Assembly: GCA_041666225.1 (NCBI GenBank)
Contig: JBAYHJ010000006.1
Coordinates: 1-52,013, forward strand
Length of the DNA: 52,013 bases
Source of the DNA: Minisyncoccota bacterium
GTDB lineage: Bacteria; Patescibacteriota; Minisyncoccia; Phycocordibacterales; UBA9973
Direction of reading: 5' to 3'
Part shown: one piece after another, positions 3,414 through 48,410 of the stretch
Numbering within the stretch: position 1 is the first letter of the stretch
Layout of the letters: each line of letters opens with the position of its first letter
Position numbers and translations under genes: made by a program
Notes under the pieces: model-generated
What the model was told of the DNA's origin: nothing
Databases searched by the model: none
Seen by the model: only the letters and a program-made list of their open reading frames with translations

Positions 3414-3634
3414 ACTTTTTAAATTTTAGTTGATAATGGTCCCCAGATGTTTTCGGGTTTATATTATACCCCTACCTGAACTCTAAAGCCAAGCAAAATT
3501 TCCAAAAATAAACACTATGAAAAAATTTTAAGAATACGTCAAATATTTTTTAAAAAGAAGTAAAAATACACCACAAAAAGACTACTATTAAAGGGTATTT
3601 CTCTCTTAAAAATTTCTTGCTAAAACAAAATTAA

Positions 3635-5439: not shown

Positions 5440-7137
5440 TTAATACACTTCTTTCTGATAACACTCTTTACAGTATATAATTTCTGGTCTTTTGGGAGCG
5501 TAGGTTGTCTCAAATTCATTTGTACAGCCATCTTTCATACATTTACGATGATATAGTACCATAGGATTTCTTAATTTCAATCGATTCTTATATCTTTCAT
5601 CAGGATGGCATCTTGGAATTGGTATATTCATCTTTTTATAAAATTGAAGTTCTGATGGGGTTATTTTAAAAGCTCTCCCAGAAATCTCACACTCAATAAC
5701 TTCACCTAAAATAGAATCATCTATATCTTTAATATCATCTGGTATATCTTTAGCTTTTAGAGTAATCGTATATTTATTATTAATTTTTTCTTTATAATTA
5801 TATCCTCTCTCTAATATTTCTTCTCTAGTTAGTGGAAAATGATCATTCGCGACTGTTTCATTATATCCAAATGGGGATAATTCATACGGGAAAAATTCTC
5901 CATATTTATATACTCTACCTTTGTTATCTATATATGGCATATCGTTCATGTGCTGTTTAATTTTAGGAATTAATTCTTCATACTCTTCTTTGGTATATTG
6001 TTTATTTAAAATACAGTATTGTTTATTTTTTAAACCAATACACAAAAATAGGTTTGAGGAGGATTGACATAAATCACTATATTCAACTGTATCTAAGGCA
6101 GGCTTACCTTCAATAATAAATTTTATATTTTGACTATTTTCAGAACCACCATGCGCATGCTCATAGGCAAGTTCAGCTTTCATATAACTAACATCCATTC
6201 CATCTTTTGATTTGACTACTCTATAACCATAATTAACATTTTCTGAACCGTAACTATTAAACAATGATTTACAATTACTGCTATCTCTAATAACATCACC
6301 AGTGGTTTTAGGGCAATTTACAATTCTTCCATATTTTCTAGGATAACTTAGTGAGATTTCCCAAAATTCTTTAATAGTTTTTTCAATAAAAATACTACTC
6401 CCAAAATTTAATTCGTTAATTTTTTTATCATATTCCTCTTTTGAATATTGTTTATTCCAAATACAATGAGTTTTATTTTGAAGATTTACACAACCAAAAC
6501 AATCTTGGCAATTATTACAATCTAAAATGAAGTTACAATTTATACAATTTAAGGACCAGTATGCGTATTTACATTTATAATTTTTAAGTACATTAATACT
6601 TTGATAAATCATTTCACTTTCAGTAGCATTAAAAGAATCAACAATTTGTTTAGATTTATCTACATTATTAGAATAATATACGTCTTCACTATCCCACAAT
6701 ATTGAGTAAGACAAATAAACATTTTTAGAGCTATCAACAAAGTTTGCATATTCTGAATTTATACATTCACCTAAGTGCCGAATACTTTGTCTTGGAACTT
6801 CGTCAAATAATTTTTTAAATTGATTAAAACATGTTTTTAAAAAATCACATTCATATCCGTACGAGGTTGCTTCCCAATTATCACTCTTCCAACATTCAGG
6901 GCAGTAGACCGGAAAAGAAACTTTATCATCATACATAGAGATTATATTTTTCTTACACATATCACATTTTCTTTTGTATAAAGACCTTTCATTTCTCCAT
7001 ATCATCCGACGGGCAAAACGACAGTGCGGGCAAAAAGTTGGCGGAGGAACTTTAATCTTCTCATAAAACAAAAAATCATCTGGCTCGATAGTGAAGTCAT
7101 TTTTACAATTTTGGCATTGTTTTGTCTCATTTTTCAT
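5440..7137 (-). CDS. Cys-rich zinc-ribbon/repeat protein family, paralog 2
   Basis: 565 aa. N-terminus QCQNCKNDFTIEPDDFLFYEKIKVPPPTFCPHCR, two CxxCxxCFGC...NKQY(T/S)KEEY blocks, C-terminus YCKECYQKEVY. No signal peptide or TM segment. Confidence 0.85.
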   Translation of the reverse strand: MKNETKQCQNCKNDFTIEPDDFLFYEKIKVPPPTFCPHCRFARRMIWRNERSLYKRKCDMCKKNIISMYDDKVSFPVYCPECWKSDNWEATSYGYECDFLKTCFNQFKKLFDEVPRQSIRHLGECINSEYANFVDSSKNVYLSYSILWDSEDVYYSNNVDKSKQIVDSFNATESEMIYQSINVLKNYKCKYAYWSLNCINCNFILDCNNCQDCFGCVNLQNKTHCIWNKQYSKEEYDKKINELNFGSSIFIEKTIKEFWEISLSYPRKYGRIVNCPKTTGDVIRDSSNCKSLFNSYGSENVNYGYRVVKSKDGMDVSYMKAELAYEHAHGGSENSQNIKFIIEGKPALDTVEYSDLCQSSSNLFLCIGLKNKQYCILNKQYTKEEYEELIPKIKQHMNDMPYIDNKGRVYKYGEFFPYELSPFGYNETVANDHFPLTREEILERGYNYKEKINNKYTITLKAKDIPDDIKDIDDSILGEVIECEISGRAFKITPSELQFYKKMNIPIPRCHPDERYKNRLKLRNPMVLYHRKCMKDGCTNEFETTYAPKRPEIIYCKECYQKEVY

Positions 7138-18053: not shown

Positions 18054-19835
18054 TTAATATACTTCTTGCTGATAGCACTTCTCACAATATAATAAATCAT
18101 TTTCATTTATGTAATTTGTCTCAAATTCTACATTACAATGTTTACTTTCATGGGAATGAACAGTATTATTTTTATAAGAATTATTATCTGTGCCATCACC
18201 CGTACACTGACATTTTCTTTTTACTGTTTGTAACAAAGTTCTTTGTTTAAGACGCTCACCACTTCTACATTTAAAACAATATCTTGGTAACGGTAAATTC
18301 AACTTCCGATAAAACTGCAATTCTTCGGGAATTATTTTAAAAGCAGTAGTACATTGGTGGGAACAATTGCCATTACACATACATGAAATGGTCTCTGAAG
18401 TTATATCATTATTCACATCCTTTATGTCATCTGGCAAATCTTCAGATTTTAATGTTATTAAATAATTTCTATCTTTTGAATCTCTCCATAAATAATTTTC
18501 TTTTATTGCTTCTTCTTTACTTAAGGTGAAATATTCTATTGCAATAGTTTCATTATAAGCAAAAGGTGAAAATTCGGCTGGAAAAAATTCTCCATATTTA
18601 TAGATAATTCCCTTTTTACTGACATAAGGCATCTCATCCATATGTTTTTTTATTTTATTAACAAGTTCAAAATATTCTTCTTTTTTATATTGTTTATTGA
18701 AAATGCAATATTGTTTTTTCTTTAATCCTACACAACCAAACAGGTCAGATGACCCACTACACATATAAGAATACTCAATATCGTGAACATTTTCTTGAAC
18801 ATTATAACAAAACTTAATATTATTTACTCCTATCCCACAAGCCGAACACTCATAGACAAATCGAGCAGAATCGCCCCATGAAGTATAATCATAGCAATCC
18901 TTGCAACCAGGCAATTCTTGTAAATATTGACAATATTTAATATTTTCTCCTTCTCTGACAAGATCTGAATTTTTAATATTTTTTGAGTGGCTAATATAAT
19001 TACCACTTACATCCACATTTTGATAGCCTTCAATAAATTTTCTAGGAAATTTTTGCCAAAATGTTTTTGTTTCTTTCTTGATTTTTTCAAGACCTAAAAA
19101 TGAAGATAGGTTATATTCTTTTATTTTTTCTTTATATTCTTCTTTTGTATATTGTTTATTGTTTATATAATATTCTTTCTTTCTTAAACCAACACAACCA
19201 AAACAATCATGACAACCCACACAATTCAAGCAAAAAGCTAAATTAAAAGAACTCTCGCAGTGTGAAGAAAAAATGATATTAGAACAAGAAGTAAGCCAAA
19301 AACCTTCATAACATTTCTCACTTTTCCCACAATGAGAAGTATCAATACATTCCTTTAAAAAGGTCACTCCATTGCAATACATGCAATCTTCTCCATTCTT
19401 TCCATTGAAAGATAAATAACAATTTTTAGGGTCAGTAAAATTATTACAATAATCACTATTTACTCCATTTACTAAGTTCAAATTTTTTAGTGGTACAGAA
19501 TAAAGCAAATCACTAAATTGTTCAAAAAAGTTTTTAAAAAAATCATAATCTCGCCCATATTCCATCGAATCCCATTTATCAGAAAGCCAAACATCTTTTT
19601 CATATACTTTTACTGGAGAGTCAGGTGAAAAAGCTGAAAATATATCCTTGCCAGAAAAATCACTTTTTCTTTTAAATAAACTATTTTCATTTCTCCATGC
19701 CATTCTTCTCTGTGCACGACACAAATAACAAAAAGTTGGAGCTGGAACATTCATGTTCTCATAAAAAGAAAAATCATCTGGCTCAATAGTGAAATCTTGG
19801 TGACAGTTTTGGCAATTCTTTGTTTGTGAATTCAT
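18054..19835 (-). CDS. Cys-rich zinc-ribbon/repeat protein family, paralog 3
   Basis: Family N-terminus MNSQTKNCQNCHQDFTIEPDDFSFYENMNVPAPTFC and C-terminus YCEKCYQQEVY. I chose the start at 19835 (M10 of the track ORF) because TATAAT lies 6 nt upstream, as in paralog 4. Confidence 0.8.
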   Translation of the reverse strand: MNSQTKNCQNCHQDFTIEPDDFSFYENMNVPAPTFCYLCRAQRRMAWRNENSLFKRKSDFSGKDIFSAFSPDSPVKVYEKDVWLSDKWDSMEYGRDYDFFKNFFEQFSDLLYSVPLKNLNLVNGVNSDYCNNFTDPKNCYLSFNGKNGEDCMYCNGVTFLKECIDTSHCGKSEKCYEGFWLTSCSNIIFSSHCESSFNLAFCLNCVGCHDCFGCVGLRKKEYYINNKQYTKEEYKEKIKEYNLSSFLGLEKIKKETKTFWQKFPRKFIEGYQNVDVSGNYISHSKNIKNSDLVREGENIKYCQYLQELPGCKDCYDYTSWGDSARFVYECSACGIGVNNIKFCYNVQENVHDIEYSYMCSGSSDLFGCVGLKKKQYCIFNKQYKKEEYFELVNKIKKHMDEMPYVSKKGIIYKYGEFFPAEFSPFAYNETIAIEYFTLSKEEAIKENYLWRDSKDRNYLITLKSEDLPDDIKDVNNDITSETISCMCNGNCSHQCTTAFKIIPEELQFYRKLNLPLPRYCFKCRSGERLKQRTLLQTVKRKCQCTGDGTDNNSYKNNTVHSHESKHCNVEFETNYINENDLLYCEKCYQQEVY

Positions 19836-19841
19836 ATGTAA

Positions 19842-19870
19842 ATTATATTCCAATTTACCCATTTATTCAA
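19842..19870 (-). promoter_or_regulatory. Promoter of paralog 3: TTGAAT-17-TATAAT, 6 nt before ATG (leaderless architecture)
   Basis: Minus strand has TTGAAT (19870-19865), a 17-nt spacer, TATAAT (19847-19842), 6 nt, then ATG at 19835. Confidence 0.5.
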
Positions 19871-19915
19871 TGTGTATCTGAATTTAGACATATGTTTTAA
19901 CCTTATGTTTTAAAA

Positions 19916-20010: not shown

Positions 20011-21759
20011 TTAATATACTTCTTGCTGATAACATTTTTCACAATAAACAATCTCAGGTCTTTCTGGAGAGTATGATGTTTCAAATTCGTTAGTACAATT
20101 TACCCCGCCCTCATGGCGGTGGCCAGGATTCTTACACATACAAGATCTATGCCAGAGCTTCATTGGGTTACGTTTTTTGAGTCTGCTTTCATGGCGACAA
20201 TTTGGACAGTACCTTGGTAAGGATAAATTCATTTGTTTATAAAATTGGAATTCTGTTTTTGTTATTTTAAATGCACTTGTACAAGTATCTGAAAAGTGAC
20301 CACACTCAATAATTTGATCTAAAATAGAATCAGTAGCTTCATTTATGTTTTTAGGGATTTCATTATTTTTCATTGTAATTTTATAATTTCTTTCATCTCT
20401 TTCCCTCCAACGATATCCCAAGTCTAAGGCTTCTTCTTTTGAAAGAGGAAATACTTCTTGAATGATTGATTCATTATAAGCAAAAGGAGAAAATTCTATC
20501 GGAAAAAATTCTCCATATTTATATTCAATACCCCTTTCGTTAATATATGGCATATCATTCATATGTTTTATTATCTTTTCTCGTAATTTAAAATATTCTT
20601 CTTTCGTATATTGTTTATTAAAAATACAATATTCCTTATTGCGAAGACCTATACAACCAAAGATATCATGACAACCTACCGAATAGTGACAATACTCAAG
20701 AGAACGGCCTTCAGGAAAACATCCATTTGAAAAGAGAACATGATTGAGGTTCGTCCCACTTTTTACAGTCTCATATACTTCAATTGAATTTTCACCATAA
20801 AATGAATAATCATAACAATCTTTTGTGGTTGGAAGATAGGTAAGAAAACAATATTTTGAATCTTCAACCCCGTTGGATTGATAAATCATTTTTGAATTTT
20901 TAGAATGATTAACATAGTCACCAGTCACCTCAATATTTTGCTTCCCGTGTATGTATTTTTGAGGATATTTAATAGAAGCCTCATAAATTTCTTTTAAAAT
21001 AATATCAACATCTTTAGAAGAAAAATCTGTGAGTTCAATAATTTTTTTAATGTATTCTTCTTTTGTGTATTGAACATTTTCAATACAGTTTTGTTTATTT
21101 CTTAAGTTAGTACACTTAAAACAATTAGAGCACCCTACAAGATTTTTGGAGAAATAAATATCGAAAGAATCCTCACAGTCAATAGAATAAAAAGCTCGAT
21201 AACATTTTTTTACATTAACACATTCATAACAATGTTCACTTTCGTAAATCATATAGCAATCAAAACAATTCTTGACATCTGCACTGGTATCACAATAAGA
21301 TGAATCTTCAACTCGGTCTGCGTAAAATACTAAATAAGCATTTTTTAGCCTCCCTGCTCCATTACAATATGGACTATTCACCATTGAAGGTTGCTCTACA
21401 CCCAAAGACATCCATGGTACTTGTCCAAGTATTTCTTTCATCTGCTCAAAAAATGGTTTAGAAAAATCATAATCGCGAGCATAAGAAAAAGGGTCCCAGC
21501 CATCACTCCACCAACAAGTATTACAATATATGGTTATTGGTTCACTATCGTGATACATACTGAAAGTTTCCTTTTTACAAAGTCCGCAAACTCTTTTATA
21601 CAAAGCACGTTTATTATAGTGATATAGACGCCTTTTAAGTCGACAATCAGGGCAAAATGTTGGTGGAGGAACTTTGATCTTTTCATAGAAAGAAAAATCA
21701 TCTGGCTCAATAGTGAAGTCATTTTTGCAATTCTGGCAATTTCTTGTTTCTGAATTCAT
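20011..21759 (-). CDS. Cys-rich zinc-ribbon/repeat protein family, paralog 4
   Basis: 582 aa. MNSETRNCQNCKNDFTIEPDDFSFYEKIKVPPPTFCPDCR ... YCEKCYQQEVY, with two CxxC..C..L(R)NK..CI.N.QYTKEEY blocks. Confidence 0.85.
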   Translation of the reverse strand: MNSETRNCQNCKNDFTIEPDDFSFYEKIKVPPPTFCPDCRLKRRLYHYNKRALYKRVCGLCKKETFSMYHDSEPITIYCNTCWWSDGWDPFSYARDYDFSKPFFEQMKEILGQVPWMSLGVEQPSMVNSPYCNGAGRLKNAYLVFYADRVEDSSYCDTSADVKNCFDCYMIYESEHCYECVNVKKCYRAFYSIDCEDSFDIYFSKNLVGCSNCFKCTNLRNKQNCIENVQYTKEEYIKKIIELTDFSSKDVDIILKEIYEASIKYPQKYIHGKQNIEVTGDYVNHSKNSKMIYQSNGVEDSKYCFLTYLPTTKDCYDYSFYGENSIEVYETVKSGTNLNHVLFSNGCFPEGRSLEYCHYSVGCHDIFGCIGLRNKEYCIFNKQYTKEEYFKLREKIIKHMNDMPYINERGIEYKYGEFFPIEFSPFAYNESIIQEVFPLSKEEALDLGYRWRERDERNYKITMKNNEIPKNINEATDSILDQIIECGHFSDTCTSAFKITKTEFQFYKQMNLSLPRYCPNCRHESRLKKRNPMKLWHRSCMCKNPGHRHEGGVNCTNEFETSYSPERPEIVYCEKCYQQEVY

Positions 21760-21765
21760 ATATAA

Positions 21766-21794
21766 ATTATATGCTAATCTACCTATTTATTCAA
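21766..21794 (-). promoter_or_regulatory. Promoter of paralog 4: TTGAAT-17-TATAAT, 6 nt before ATG
   Basis: Minus strand has TTGAAT (21794-21789), a 17-nt spacer, TATAAT (21771-21766), 6 nt, then ATG at 21759. Confidence 0.5.
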
Positions 21795-21805
21795 TATATT
21801 TTAAA

Positions 21806-28281: not shown

Positions 28282-28349
28282 AACTACATCTTAACATATA
28301 GTTGAAATATATTATAAATATGCTATTATATTAAATATCCAATAATAAT

Positions 28350-28422
28350 GCGCGATTAGCTCAGTTGGTAGAGCAACTCATTTACACTGAGAAGGTCGGG
28401 GGTTCAAGTCCCTCATCGCGCA
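28350..28422 (+). tRNA. tRNA-Val (TAC)
   Basis: GCGCGAT acceptor, D loop AGTTGGTA, anticodon stem ACTCA/TGAGA with loop TTTACAC, T loop TTCAAGT. Confidence 0.9.
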
Positions 28423-28443
28423 CAGTGTCTAAAATAACCCCCT

Positions 28444-28515
28444 GCCCTTGTAGTTAAATGGATATAACTGCGGACTTCTAAGCCGTTATTGCAGGTTCGA
28501 TTCCTGCCGAGGGCA
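28444..28515 (+). tRNA. tRNA-Arg (TCT)
   Basis: Acceptor GCCCTTG/CGAGGGC, D loop AATGGATA, anticodon loop CTTCTAA, T arm GCAGG-TTCGATT-CCTGC. Confidence 0.85.
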
Positions 28516-28696
28516 CCTTAAACGAACTAAATGATTTTGAAGAGGATAAGGAGTGGGCGTTGCGAAGCAACGCCCACGCTGTTTCGCCCGTTTTCGCCAA
28601 TGAATTCTGGGTTCGGAATTCGGCACCGCCTTCGGCGGTGTGGATTGTTTTTTCGGAAAGGTGCGGGAGGAATGCGGGGCGGGGGCTGACACTATT
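28516..28696. repeat. Left GC-rich structured arm; its last 34 nt (28663-28696) are the perfect inverted repeat of 29834-29867
   Basis: Local hairpins are GTGGGCGTTGC-gaa-GCAACGCCCAC (28553-28577) and CACCGCC-ttc-GGCGGTG (28624-28640). The arm is far more GC-rich than its surroundings. Blocks 28541-28552 and 28593-28613 are complementary to the right arm. Confidence 0.6.
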
Positions 28697-28723
28697 TAAT
28701 ATAAAAAGTATATATGTTATAAT
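28695..28723 (+). promoter_or_regulatory. Candidate promoter of the bracketed gene (TTTAAT-17-TATAAT, 6 nt before ATG)
   Basis: TTTAAT 28695-28700, 17-nt spacer, TATAAT 28718-28723, 6 nt, ATG at 28730. No SD motif. Confidence 0.4.
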
Positions 28724-28729
28724 GATTAT

Positions 28730-29161
28730 ATGAGTATGGAAAGTCCAATTGAAAAAAAAGAACAACTAAAAAAATATTATTTTTTTCTGGGTGGAGAAGA
28801 TTTAGAAATGCACGCAATAAAAAATTTGTTAAACAGTCATAAAATACCTTACTTGCAAACTTCAACAGGCTGGGGAGCAAAAGCTAACGAATTTGAAAAT
28901 GAAATAAAAACTAAAACAGCAGAAGGATATACCCCCGTCAAAATTGAACTGACAGGTGGCATAGACGGAGTTGAGGATTTAATTGATGTCGATCATCATA
29001 ATGAACAATCTGCCACTGCACCTGCTTCAATATTACAAGTGTGTGAATTATTAGGAATACAACCAGATCGAAATATTCAATTAGTGGCAATAAATGATGT
29101 TGGATTTTCTCACGGATTATTAAAATTTGGTGCTACTATAGAAGAAATTCAAAAAATTTAG
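28730..29161 (+). CDS. Hypothetical protein, N-terminal segment plus repeat module 1 of the bracketed gene (weak DHH-like motif)
   Basis: 143-aa ORF with YYFFLGGEDLEMHAI and LIDVDHHNE. It ends at TAG immediately after an A6 run (29151-29156). Confidence 0.6.
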   Translation: MSMESPIEKKEQLKKYYFFLGGEDLEMHAIKNLLNSHKIPYLQTSTGWGAKANEFENEIKTKTAEGYTPVKIELTGGIDGVEDLIDVDHHNEQSATAPASILQVCELLGIQPDRNIQLVAINDVGFSHGLLKFGATIEEIQKI

Positions 29162-29490
29162 CGTGGGGAGCTAAAGTCATTGATTATGATAAAGAAATTA
29201 TAAAATGTGTTGCTAATGGATATATCCCAGTACTTGTTGAACTTGAAGGGGCTAAAGATATTTTAAATTCAATAAATATTGATCATCATGGTGATTTTTC
29301 GGGGAATGATCCAGCTATTATACAATCAATTTTCGGTATTATTTACCGTAAAGAAGTTTTACTTGGTATTAATGATGCTGAATATATTGGTGGTCTCATA
29401 GAAAAAGGTGCAACAGAGGAAGAAATTGAAGCACTTCGAGAAATTGATCGTATCTCTCAAGGTATTACTCAGGAGGAAGAAAAAGAAGGT

Positions 29491-29838
29491 ATGGAAGCGA
29501 TAAAACATATGGAGCGTTTTGAAGATTTAGATGACTTAATTATTTTAAGAATGAATCATAGTAAAATTGCAACTGTCACAGATCGTCTATTTAGTGATCA
29601 ATATTCTAAAAAGGGACAAAACATTTTAGTAATTTCAAAAGACAAAGAAGAGATAAACTATAGCGCTATTAATAAAATAAATCTTATTAATGAATTAGAA
29701 AAAAATTTTAGTGGTTGGGTTGGTGGTAAAGAACCAAATAAATATTGGGGTGTAAATAGAGAAAAAAATCCCAATATGCCTAGACAAGAAGAAATTATTG
29801 AATTTGTGAAAAATTATTTTATTAAGAATAAAGAATAG
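29491..29838 (+). CDS. C-terminal segment of the bracketed gene; the frame is actually open from 29098 and contains repeat module 2
   Basis: The -1 frame relative to 28730..29161 reads AWGAKVIDYDKEI...INIDHHGD... from 29161 and runs into this 115-aa track ORF. The stop TAG at 29836-29838 lies inside the right inverted repeat. Confidence 0.5.
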   Translation: MEAIKHMERFEDLDDLIILRMNHSKIATVTDRLFSDQYSKKGQNILVISKDKEEINYSAINKINLINELEKNFSGWVGGKEPNKYWGVNREKNPNMPRQEEIIEFVKNYFIKNKE

Positions 29839-30080
29839 TGTCAGCCCCCGCCCCGCATTCCTCCCGCGGATCTTCCTGCCCGCGGAAACCCAACCCAAAA
29901 TCTTGGCGAATTTCAGAAAAGGATTAGTCGAGGTTTTGCGAATCATTCTCCCAGAATATATTTTCGCAAAACCGAGTCCGCATTGTATTCGCACATTCTG
30001 TCCTTTTCCTTTGGAAAAGCTCTGTGCTACTGCACAGAGGTGCTTTAGCACAGCGGGGAACGCTATGATACTTTATTTTG
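29834..30080. repeat. Right GC-rich structured arm; its first 34 nt are the perfect inverted repeat of 28663-28696
   Basis: Hairpins are CCGCGG...CCGCGG (29864-29885), GGTTTTGCGAA...TTCGCAAAACC (29932-29973), CTCTGTGC-tact-GCACAGAG (30020-30039), GTGC-ttta-GCAC (30040-30051) and AGCG-gggaa-CGCT (30052-30064), followed by a T-run. Confidence 0.6.
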
Positions 30081-30123
30081 AAAATAGGTTCTGATTTGGT
30101 AGAATAAATGCACAATCAAATTA

Positions 30124-30441
30124 TTAAATACTTGGATCTTTATATAAATACAAACCCTCCTTTGCTTCTTTTTCTTTAATTGCTTTAATATCAAAAGATT
30201 TAGTAACCTTATCTAATATTTTTTCATTAATAAAAACCTGTGATTCTACTGATATAGGTGTAATTTGAAATATTTGTTGATTTTTTATTTTATATAAAAG
30301 ATAAAAACTAAAAAGTACCAATAGTGCAAGAATAATAGAAAAAATATATAACAAATTGTTCCAATATATATGTGGATTTATCTTTTTAAAAGGAGCAAAA
30401 TTTTTTATATTATTTTTAATTTTGAATAGAAATTCTTTCAT
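30124..30441 (-). CDS. Small single-TM protein, last gene of the pilus assembly cluster
   Basis: 105 aa with one TM helix (LLYIFSIILALLVLFSFYLLY). No recognisable motif. Confidence 0.4.
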   Translation of the reverse strand: MKEFLFKIKNNIKNFAPFKKINPHIYWNNLLYIFSIILALLVLFSFYLLYKIKNQQIFQITPISVESQVFINEKILDKVTKSFDIKAIKEKEAKEGLYLYKDPSI

Positions 30442-48249: not shown

Positions 48250-48251
48250 CA

Positions 48252-48410
48252 ATAAAGCGTTTCGGCGCTTTTTGTGTTCCCGAAGACGTGAACTGCTTCA
48301 CGTCTATGCAGGAAGCGAAAAGCTTTTCTGTAATTCTGAAAGAATTTAGAAAAGGTCTACTGTCCTCGTAGAGGAAGATATCCTGCCGGGATCACACGGT
48401 CGTGCTAGCA
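48252..48410 (+). ncRNA. Candidate structured tRNA-trailer element (copy R), homologous to 37088-37250
   Basis: AAAGCG-tttcgg-CGCTTT plus T-run, hairpin AGACGTGAA-ctgc-TTCACGTCT (48284-48305), AGGAAG...TTTTCTGT (48310-48331) and CACGGTCG (48395-48402). It also shares GAATTT(C)AGAAAAGG with the right arm at about 29907-29922. Confidence 0.3.
48381..48396 (+). repeat. 16-nt direct repeat of the tRNA-Arg(GCG) 3' end (first copy 48236-48251)
   Basis: TCCTGCCGGGATCACA occurs at 48236-48251 (tRNA T-arm/acceptor 3' half) and again at 48381-48396, an att-like arrangement. Confidence 0.7.

Follow-up and report, generated by a model that had tools for sequence, protein, structure and literature searches.

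The stretch of DNA analysed here (the window) comprises 52,013 nucleotides of contig JBAYHJ010000006.1 from a Minisyncoccota bacterium. Right behind a pair of tRNA genes it carries a 1.6-kb element that consists of two GC-rich arms around an AT-rich coding segment. The tRNA genes, tRNA-Val(TAC) at 28350-28423 (70.4 bits with the Rfam tRNA model) and tRNA-Arg(TCT) at 28444-28517, are both on the plus strand and were identified with ARAGORN and Rfam. The GC content reaches 50-59% at ~28500-28700 and at ~29800-30050, against a window mean of 31%. At their inner ends the arms share a 34-nt core in inverted orientation (left copy, 28663-28696, minus strand; right copy, 29834-29867, plus strand). 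The copies are 100% reverse-complementary, and a 24-nt part of the core found no chance matches in 100 shuffles. Local hairpins are present in the arms at 28553-28577 and 28623-28641, along with the CCGCGG and GGTTTTGCGAA hairpins, and the TAG stop codon of the enclosed coding segment (29836-29838) falls inside the repeat. The initial annotation of the locus, made from the letters of the window, had described the perfect repeat, the GC-rich arms directly behind the tRNA pair, the local hairpins and the position of the stop codon, and all of these stand.

The core repeat is genuine. A unitig from an independent assembly (Logan) spans exactly 28667-29863, is 100% identical to the window, and breaks 30 nt inside each core copy, which we read as the behaviour expected of a true inverted repeat at k=31, the value assumed for this assembly. 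The ENA contig L015, which comes from a further assembly collection, shows no difference from the window along 12.4 kb. As both agree with the window, the repeat is real and the inner segment is independently reproduced. A chance palindrome or an assembly chimera might be suspected from the rarity of the core: an exact scan with 21 nt of it gave no matches in viral contigs and none in GTDB representative genomes, and the ten matches in JGI metagenomes are all chance occurrences inside coding DNA of 59-63% GC. Against this, shuffled sequences gave no chance matches, the Logan assembly gives the same inner segment to the base and is interrupted within both repeat copies, and sequences homologous to either flank occur in other genomes, where the modules stand in the same order. 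We regard chance or chimerism as exceedingly improbable and, for practical purposes, refuted.

The segment between the arms had been taken for one 1.1-kb protein gene. It is made up of two out-of-frame, overlapping fragments of the same family, and an NrN-like DHH hydrolase was not found in the window as one intact full-length frame. The first fragment (ORF1, 28730-29161, plus strand; 143 aa, ending at a TAG) is the N-terminal half of such a hydrolase and matches PADLOC DHH_CorA (E=4.6e-32, profile positions 1-128 of 245). The second (29161-29838, plus strand, in another frame) lacks the first ~31 profile positions and has no start codon in frame before 29491. It matches PADLOC C3a116 (E=4.8e-40, profile positions 32-222), its coverage of the family reaches positions 32-231 (DHH_CorA/C3a116), and it is 69-71% identical to the proteins P0001 and P0002. 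Intact relatives of the cargo protein have 244-360 aa. The fragments overlap by ~100 profile positions but are only ~38% identical to each other, and they lie 293 nt out of register, with an internal diverged repeat (D1, D2) at a spacing of 290-293 nt. The cargo is assigned by family membership with hidden Markov models. DHH_CorA (‘DHH family hydrolase, CorA associated’) corresponds to the NrN-type phosphodiesterases of type III CRISPR CorA systems (PMC10600005). No GC-rich arms surround the genes of the closest homologues, P0001 and P0002 (loci L001 and L004), so the arms are not an attribute of the cargo gene; the idea that they travel with the DHH gene family was rejected on the same grounds. 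Both of these homologue genes adjoin tRNA or tRNA-like sequence. Another member of the NrN-like DHH family, P0007 (398 aa), carries a C-terminal HEPN domain (PF05168).

Comparison with related genomes indicates where the element begins and ends. We collected fourteen loci from GTDB genomes of Paceibacteria/Nomurabacteria and other Patescibacteria by means of the neighbouring rluD gene. Five of these relatives (L019, L020, L021, L024 and L027) keep the order pilM-p193-p105-tRNA-Arg/Val-rluD without the 1.6 kb. The empty site of L020 reads ..GAGGGCACC|AAATATTAAATACTTGGATC.., with the p105 stop codon 8 nt from tRNA-Arg. In the window, the left junction, at the 3' end of tRNA-Arg (..GAGGGCACC), is ..GAGGGCACC|TTAAACGAAC.., and the right junction is ..AATAAATGCACAATC|AAATTATTAAATACTTGGATC.., so that the insertion ends are GCACC|TTAAAC and GCACAATC|AAAT. 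The L020 junction, GGGCACC|AAATATTAAATACTTGGATC, agrees with both. Since the junctions of the relatives lack it, the stretch from 28518 to ~30117 is an insertion placed exactly at the tRNA 3' end. No target-site duplication was seen at its ends when the window and empty-site junctions were compared.

The origin of the left arm became apparent from one of these relatives. In L021, a tRNA-Leu(gag) gene is followed by a GC-rich stretch homologous to the left arm of the window, then by a convergent gene for a large serine recombinase (LSR), and beyond it by an inverted copy of the GC-rich stretch (99 nt, 100%) that ends at the contig end. The same design, a downstream arm A and an upstream arm A' around an LSR gene, recurs in all seven loci examined for repeats (L021, L033, L035, L036, L037, L040 and L041). 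The arm pairs measure 79-171 nt, the shorter values being cut by contig ends, and are 98-100% complementary (90.6% in L041); the spacing between A and A' is 1569-1577 nt. The LSR open reading frame (ORF) overlaps with the downstream arm by its last ~55 codons, and the outer end of this arm touches a convergent tRNA gene, which may be Ile-tat, Leu-caa, Leu-gag, Val-tac or Val-gac. The LSR ORFs continue into the antisense strand of the tRNA, and their recurring ..G(L/F/I)EP ending corresponds to the antisense T loop.

Several lines of evidence place the left arm of the window in this A family. A covariance model (R2) built from eight A arms, with the window left out, gives a single match in the 52 kb, at 28512-28669 on the plus strand (69.1 bits, E=5.8e-17, model positions 1-152 of 152); no further A copy is present in the window. 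In local alignments, the left arm scores z values of 12-20 against five of six A arms and 4.5 against the sixth, vs 0.8-4 against the module found on the right. An antisense ORF at 28478-28765 encodes ..NSLAKTGETAWALLRNAHSLSSSKSFSSFKVPSAGIEP, which is 58% identical over 38 aa to the tail of the LSR P0023 (E=2e-11). The A arm of the window (28518-28662, plus strand) begins one base past tRNA-Arg, and the antisense ORF reads ..SAGIEP into the T arm; all intact A copies likewise abut a tRNA 3' end, with the recombinase-sense strand antisense to the tRNA. The arm can be regarded as the fossil of an LSR gene 3' end on the minus strand and as the 3' trailer of tRNA-Arg on the plus strand.

What is conserved in the A arm is nucleic-acid structure. 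Its hairpin 1 (28553-28577; GTGGGCGTTGC GAA GCAACGCCCAC) is found in all nine aligned A arms and shows compensatory double changes at five stem pairs across these copies, while a second hairpin, rich in GC (28623-28641 in the window) and with TGTTTTTTCG behind it, is kept in most of them. Differences at codon positions 1:2:3 number 522:322:1172 in the LSR body vs 109:114:131 in the arm. With no codon periodicity among its substitutions, the arm evolves as nucleic acid, although the ORF remains open across it. The alternative that the LSR tail in the arm is mainly constrained as a conserved protein segment was rejected because this periodicity is absent, unlike in the gene body. Two further A-like sequences came up outside the window. 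In L043, a full-length A arm (3474-3625, plus strand, 158.5 bits) is accompanied by part of an LSR 3' end and of an antisense tRNA; the contig also has an intact LSR unit 1.4 kb away, and the arm represents another recombinase-less relic. In L027, a weak match to the A model (6897-6963, plus strand, 18.8 bits, E=0.0024) lies ~215 nt downstream of tRNA-Leu(gag) and is possibly a strongly decayed A-arm relic.

The recombinases themselves form a large family, with at least 7,858 proteins at E≤0.001. The best 120 of these are 73-88% identical and have Resolvase, Recombinase and Zn-ribbon domains; among the same 120, the genes are often on contigs of 1.7-2.1 kb or at contig ends. The best matches are the CcrB/XisF models and the A118 integrase structure, to which the relationship is distant; the scores lie below every NCBIfam cut-off, and identity to annotated phage or plasmid LSRs does not exceed 30%. 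The LSR 3' end faces the tRNA in eight of eight loci, an observation that might speak against the LSR segment being a freely flipping switch; since the arms are longer than the assembly k-mer, the assembled orientation is unreliable, and we did not use it as evidence. The LSR genes also have a promoter-like site of their own and a long 5' leader (L040 9919-9985, L036 ~780-860, L021 8880-8950), which carries a 20-nt perfect hairpin just before the start codon. This arrangement suggests a further level of control over recombinase expression.

The right arm of the window belongs to a different module, which we call X (29834-30117, plus strand; ~280 nt with several hairpins and a fold z-score of -6.0). 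Window positions 29834-30110 are 75% identical over 257 nt to positions 252-504 of L036 (E=3e-38), and the window X is 76% and 82% identical to that of L038/L040 over two blocks; the X of L041 joins the family in a four-way alignment. The two arms had been seen as mirror partners. This view has to be abandoned, as the left one falls in the A family (E=5.8e-17) and the right one in X (E=3e-38). Every locus whose contig reaches that far (L036, L037, L040 and L041) has X directly outside the upstream arm A'. In the long contigs of L040 and L041, X occurs as an inverted pair of 354 nt (99.4% and 100%, respectively) around a cargo of ~3.1 kb, beside the LSR unit. The cargo of L040 comprises Peptidase_M15, a 250-aa protein and Beta-lactamase2, and that of L041 GreA, a radical SAM protein and small ORFs. 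The L040 island shares the neighbourhood of the window element, as it lies between the pil operon and rluD-L19. In intact islands, CACCA is present at both the tRNA|A and the X-tip|A' junctions. A full-length X inverted pair was not found in the window, where only 34 nt of the second copy remain. The right core copy is the natural inner end of the X module. The left one is also X-type sequence, holding the invariant X block GCATTCCTCCC, and it is the sole remnant, from the inner (X-start) end, of the second, inverted X copy.

The X module of the window retains the features of its relatives, namely the GCATTCCTCCC block, the hairpins and a TTGAAA-N16-TAnAAT tip. Across copies the tip reads TTGAAA-N16-TA(C/G/A)AAT with an upstream TG. 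In the window it makes up an outward-facing promoter-like site (30078-30105, plus strand; TTGAAA-16-TAGAAT with TG), the hexamers of which are invariant in four X copies; the tip pattern had no matches in viral contigs. In the four sequences compared, 13 of 47 predicted pairs carry compensatory changes. The initial annotation had noted that hairpins are kept while their sequences differ and had taken this as a sign of selected structure; both this figure and the five compensatory pairs of A-arm hairpin 1 bear it out. A candidate long-range closing stem, CCCCGC/GCGGGG (CCGCGCGC/GCGCGCGG in L036), comes from single-sequence folding and inspection by eye and is absent from the consensus fold. Fold comparisons singled out neither strand of X as the functional one. 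We also considered that X and A might be diverged copies of each other. Five collinear blocks can be aligned by eye, but the alignment z values are mostly ≤3 in both orientations, and we do not claim such a relationship.

Neither module corresponds to a known RNA family. At gathering scores for the whole window, and at E≤10 for 28300-30300, Rfam searches returned only the tRNAs and noise, in keeping with the initial annotation. Even at E≤10 the arms had no matches to group I or II introns, ribozymes, ROOL, GOLLD, HEARO, OLE or other Rfam families, and X and A had no Rfam matches in L036, L040 or L041. The shuffle test on the core, the compensatory changes in the hairpins and the lack of an Rfam family support the earlier description of the region as a discrete, structured and non-random element that had remained unclassified. 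In L036, a LOOT RNA (Rfam RF03000; 52-173, minus strand, 81.4 bits) lies ~50 nt beyond the outer, cargo-side end of X, at the contig end.

From the homologies of its modules, the insertion at 28518-30117, made up of the A arm, the 34-nt X remnant, the cargo and the X module, is probably the degraded remainder, without a recombinase, of a type of mobile island that integrates at tRNA 3' ends in Patescibacteria. Read outward from the tRNA, an intact island consists of A (outer to inner), the LSR body, A' (inner to outer), X (tip to start), the cargo, X (start to tip) and the flank. The order in the window is A (outer to inner), the last 34 nt of an X copy (start), the cargo, X (start to tip) and the flank. 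The modules of the window agree with those of an intact island in order and orientation, minus one contiguous block. We infer that a single deletion of ~2 kb took out the LSR body together with A' and spared just 34 nt of one X copy. Its breakpoints would lie within X and where the A arm ends on its inner side, and would have been joined at a purine-rich GGAGG block shared by X and A. The terminal GGUUCGAGCC of the A model aligns to 28660-28669, in this purine-rich GGAGG block common to A and X, and the homology to A stops at ~28669. The outer edge of the repeat is the place where A homology begins; its inner edge is close to where X naturally ends on the inner side, 22 nt before the invariant X block, vs 27 nt in L041 and 37 nt in L040. 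One such deletion, with the core copies as relics of two former copies of X, would explain why identity is perfect for 34 nt at the inner ends and gone beyond. Today, the A arm might serve as a structured trailer and terminator of the tRNA operon, the cargo may have its own promoter inside the core, and the X tip may act as an outward promoter, antisense to the convergent p105 gene.

Some observations weigh against this reading. The 52-kb window has no LSR, and the link to these enzymes rests on arm homology and on the relatives. The sample is small, as DNA was available for four copies of X and nine of A. Homology between X and A could not be demonstrated, and the deletion could therefore have used at most the short shared GGAGG block. 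One deletion end lies within a few nucleotides of the natural inner boundary of A, and the event may instead have been site-specific. The arms and X are structurally intact although the cargo is broken, which hints at a retained function or a recent origin and is not explained by calling the element a fossil. Finally, a fossil model leaves both the origin of the perfect inverted pairs and the LSR attachment sites unaccounted for.

The main rival is an active invertible cassette, in which the two 34-bp copies would be recombination sites and the 1.1-kb segment between them would be inverted by RecA or by the product of a serine recombinase gene at another place in the genome. The repeat is indeed perfect while the rest of the arms differ, and both core copies contain an inward-facing -35-like CTGACA. 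Related recombinases are labelled Pin-like invertases by some sources, and intact islands have inverted pairs around cargo beside a serine recombinase, a layout resembling those of Mu G/gin and P1 C/cin. Among the relatives, tRNA-Val and tRNA-Arg frequently have an inverted orientation with respect to rluD or to each other. However, the 52 kb contain no recombinase gene, the flipping of two broken gene fragments would have no obvious effect, and the deletion scenario already accounts for the perfect identity. A single orientation was seen, but L015 has the same sequence as the window and the Logan unitig is uninformative on orientation. On balance we consider an active cassette unlikely, and the remnant of an LSR island remains the reading that we prefer.

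The initial annotation had offered another model, in which a read-through transcript of the tRNA operon would allow the arms to pair, as an RNase III-type processing stem or an ORF-in-loop intron around the gene. If one transcript spanned both core copies, these would form a 34-bp duplex of -78.7 kcal/mol, and such a duplex would be an RNase III substrate; both arms are also strongly structured, with fold z-scores of -2.6 and -6.0. The transcription signals argue otherwise. The left arm contains an intrinsic-terminator-like hairpin (28623-28641) followed by TTTTTT (28648-28653, plus strand), and the homologous hairpin of L040 was called a terminator. The best promoter-like site for the cargo (28696-28723, plus strand; TTAATA-16-TATAAT with TG) lies in the left core, 7 nt before the ATG of ORF1. 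A tRNA operon transcript would enter the A arm and stop at the terminator near 28655, before the core. Because of this terminator and of the cargo promoter in the left core, a transcript with both cores is not expected, which argues against the RNase III-type stem or the ORF-in-loop intron.

Pairing between the arms beyond the core is likewise unremarkable. The supposed mirror collinearity, which would give an interrupted stem of ~60 bp, does not exceed the level of shuffled sequences past the 34-bp core. The best local match between the arms outside the core (20/24, z=4) equals the best shuffle. Co-folding yields 54 inter-arm pairs outside the core vs 34.9 ± 15.2 in shuffles, 5 of 60 of which reach 54, and the extra co-fold energy beyond the core is -14.2 vs -11.8 ± 4.8 kcal/mol in shuffles. 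In addition, the arms come from two families that are found elsewhere without each other as partners, the close homologues of the gene (L001 and L004) have no such arms, the arms have no intron or ribozyme matches at E≤10, and the enclosed gene is broken. A stem formed in a read-through transcript is therefore highly unlikely to explain the element. Two further statements of the initial annotation concerned its classification. That it carries no integrase is correct for the window, where tblastn with the L021 LSR found no LSR gene, but it does not extend to the family, as intact relatives carry an LSR between the same arms. That it fits no IS or miniature inverted-repeat transposable element (MITE), and no group I or II intron, was well founded: inverted identity is limited to the inner ends, there is no duplication, and Rfam gives no intron match.

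In intact islands, the same signals might serve a different purpose. The X-tip promoter-like site of L040 (9635-9662) points into the upstream arm A', which ends in a terminator. Transcription from the X tip through A' to this terminator would give an RNA of ~125 nt, perfectly antisense to the 3' end of the LSR mRNA. Judging from these predicted signals, it is plausible that such an RNA acts as a brake on, or repressor of, the recombinase.

The surroundings of the insertion site deserve some remarks of their own. Among the Paceibacteria genomes (L019-L032), the tRNA-Val/tRNA-Arg pair beside rluD is a rearrangement hot spot, where the two genes occur in tandem on either strand, divergently, or 0.4-2 kb apart. 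We also noticed a second kind of GC-rich trailer behind tRNA-Arg genes, in the window at 48250-48400 (plus strand) and in L019 (4050-4260, minus strand), L030 (4140-4340, minus strand) and L040 (5414-5607, plus strand). In these trailers, a long and perfect hairpin of locus-specific sequence is built from the tRNA 3' end and a terminator; in L019 and L030 it measures 26-30 bp. It is followed by a second hairpin, whose stem covaries and whose loop, AACTGCTT, is conserved, and then by TGCAGGAA(T/G)CGAAAG, an antisense T-arm fragment, plus a direct repeat of the tRNA 3' end. The arrangement resembles a scar or pseudo-tRNA of the kind that recombination at tRNA 3' ends would leave. At the ‘empty’ tRNA-Arg sites of L021 (4692-4758), L019 and L030, the 3' strand of the acceptor is repeated in inverted orientation just past the terminator. 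These inverted copies co-vary, as seen from CCAGGGGCACC/GGTGCCCCTTGG in L021 vs CGAGGGCAC/GTGCCCTCG in L019, and the resulting head-to-head acceptor palindrome could be a recombinase target or footprint. Elsewhere in the window, a self-comparison revealed a ~144-nt repeat of 83% identity (~19729-19871 and ~21653-21795), and an AdoCbl (cobalamin) riboswitch is found at 374-530 on the minus strand (66.7 bits, gathering score 50).

For the window locus, our analysis mostly brings clarification: a puzzling palindrome around a gene would be mobile-element debris at a tRNA gene, a case of ordinary decay. The architecture of the parent islands is the more useful outcome: a large and highly conserved recombinase clade of the Candidate Phyla Radiation (CPR) is found at the 3' ends of various tRNA genes, with a stereotyped layout of nested inverted repeats. 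It is because of this layout that these loci break short-read assemblies. The layout may also underlie the frequent inversions of tRNA regions among related genomes. Full-text literature searches found no description of it in Patescibacteria, and the architecture of the parent LSR island appears to be undescribed. Going further, we advance with some reserve, as a possibility that falls a little short of an even chance, that the window element is the relic of an undescribed and very abundant class of Patescibacteria islands, characterised by a distinct LSR clade (>7,800 proteins), the use of many tRNA 3' ends, nested inverted pairs and antisense self-control by the ~125-nt RNA. In such islands, the perfect inverted pairs might in addition allow inversion of the recombinase and cargo segments. 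If these LSRs do recognise a shared feature of tRNA 3' ends and are governed by an arm-derived antisense RNA, this would be relevant to CPR genome dynamics and to the development of recombinase tools.

How do these islands compare with known systems? Complementary sequences flank a coding region in rRNA operons, with their RNase III stems, and in group I or II introns with an ORF in a loop, as they do in the window. Unlike those systems, the window element shows neither an intron nor a ribozyme signature, its complementarity ends after 34 bp, and the arm is separated from the gene by a terminator and a promoter. The outer ends of the window element, TTAAACGAAC.. and ..GCACAATC, are unrelated, and inverted identity is confined to the inner ends, unlike in IS elements or MITEs. 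In some IS elements, the transposase ORF ends in the terminal inverted repeat and expression is controlled by an antisense RNA, as for RNA-OUT of IS10. Similarly, the island recombinase ORF ends inside a terminal repeat, and a promoter-to-terminator unit of the island is predicted to give an RNA complementary to the recombinase mRNA. However, the predicted RNA would originate in an inverted copy across the gene and act on the 3' end of the mRNA. Nor is the enzyme a DDE transposase, and the junctions show no target-site duplication.

Genomic islands at tRNA genes, including the tycheposons of Prochlorococcus (bioRxiv 10.1101/2020.12.28.424599), similarly bring variable cargo to tRNA 3' ends, where relics and tRNA 3'-end fragments accumulate. 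Their integrases are of the tyrosine (or another) type, and such islands lie between direct repeats of the tRNA 3' end; the islands described here have a serine recombinase and long inverted pairs of element sequence instead. Invertible segments with an adjacent serine invertase offer another parallel, such as the Mu G segment with gin, the P1 C segment with cin, which has inverted repeats of ~0.6 kb, and the hin system of Salmonella. As in the Mu and P1 cases, ~3 kb of island DNA lies between inverted repeats directly beside a serine recombinase gene; in the case of Hin, the recombinase gene itself lies between the repeats. Gin, Cin and Hin are small invertases that act at short crossover sites to switch the expression of tail fibres or flagellin. 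By contrast, the islands use a large serine recombinase and carry unrelated accessory genes as cargo, and in the assembled sequences no inversion was seen. To our knowledge, none of the tRNA islands, the Mu G/gin and P1 C/cin systems or IS10 combines nested, long and perfect inverted pairs with a recombinase 3' end located in one of the arms.

The closest likeness is to LSR integrative elements, represented by the phage integrases of A118, Bxb1 and phiC31, CcrA/B of SCCmec, XisF and the TnpX/TndX transposons. The recombinases of the relatives have the same set of Resolvase, Recombinase and Zn-ribbon domains, and the insertion occupies a precise site that is empty in relatives. Unlike in those elements, the island LSR gene is bracketed by near-perfect inverted arms of ≤171 nt, one of which contains its own 3' end, and a second inverted pair of 354 nt brackets the cargo. 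At least five intact islands are found at different tRNA species, with the window relic as a sixth, and the copy in the window differs from them all in having no recombinase.

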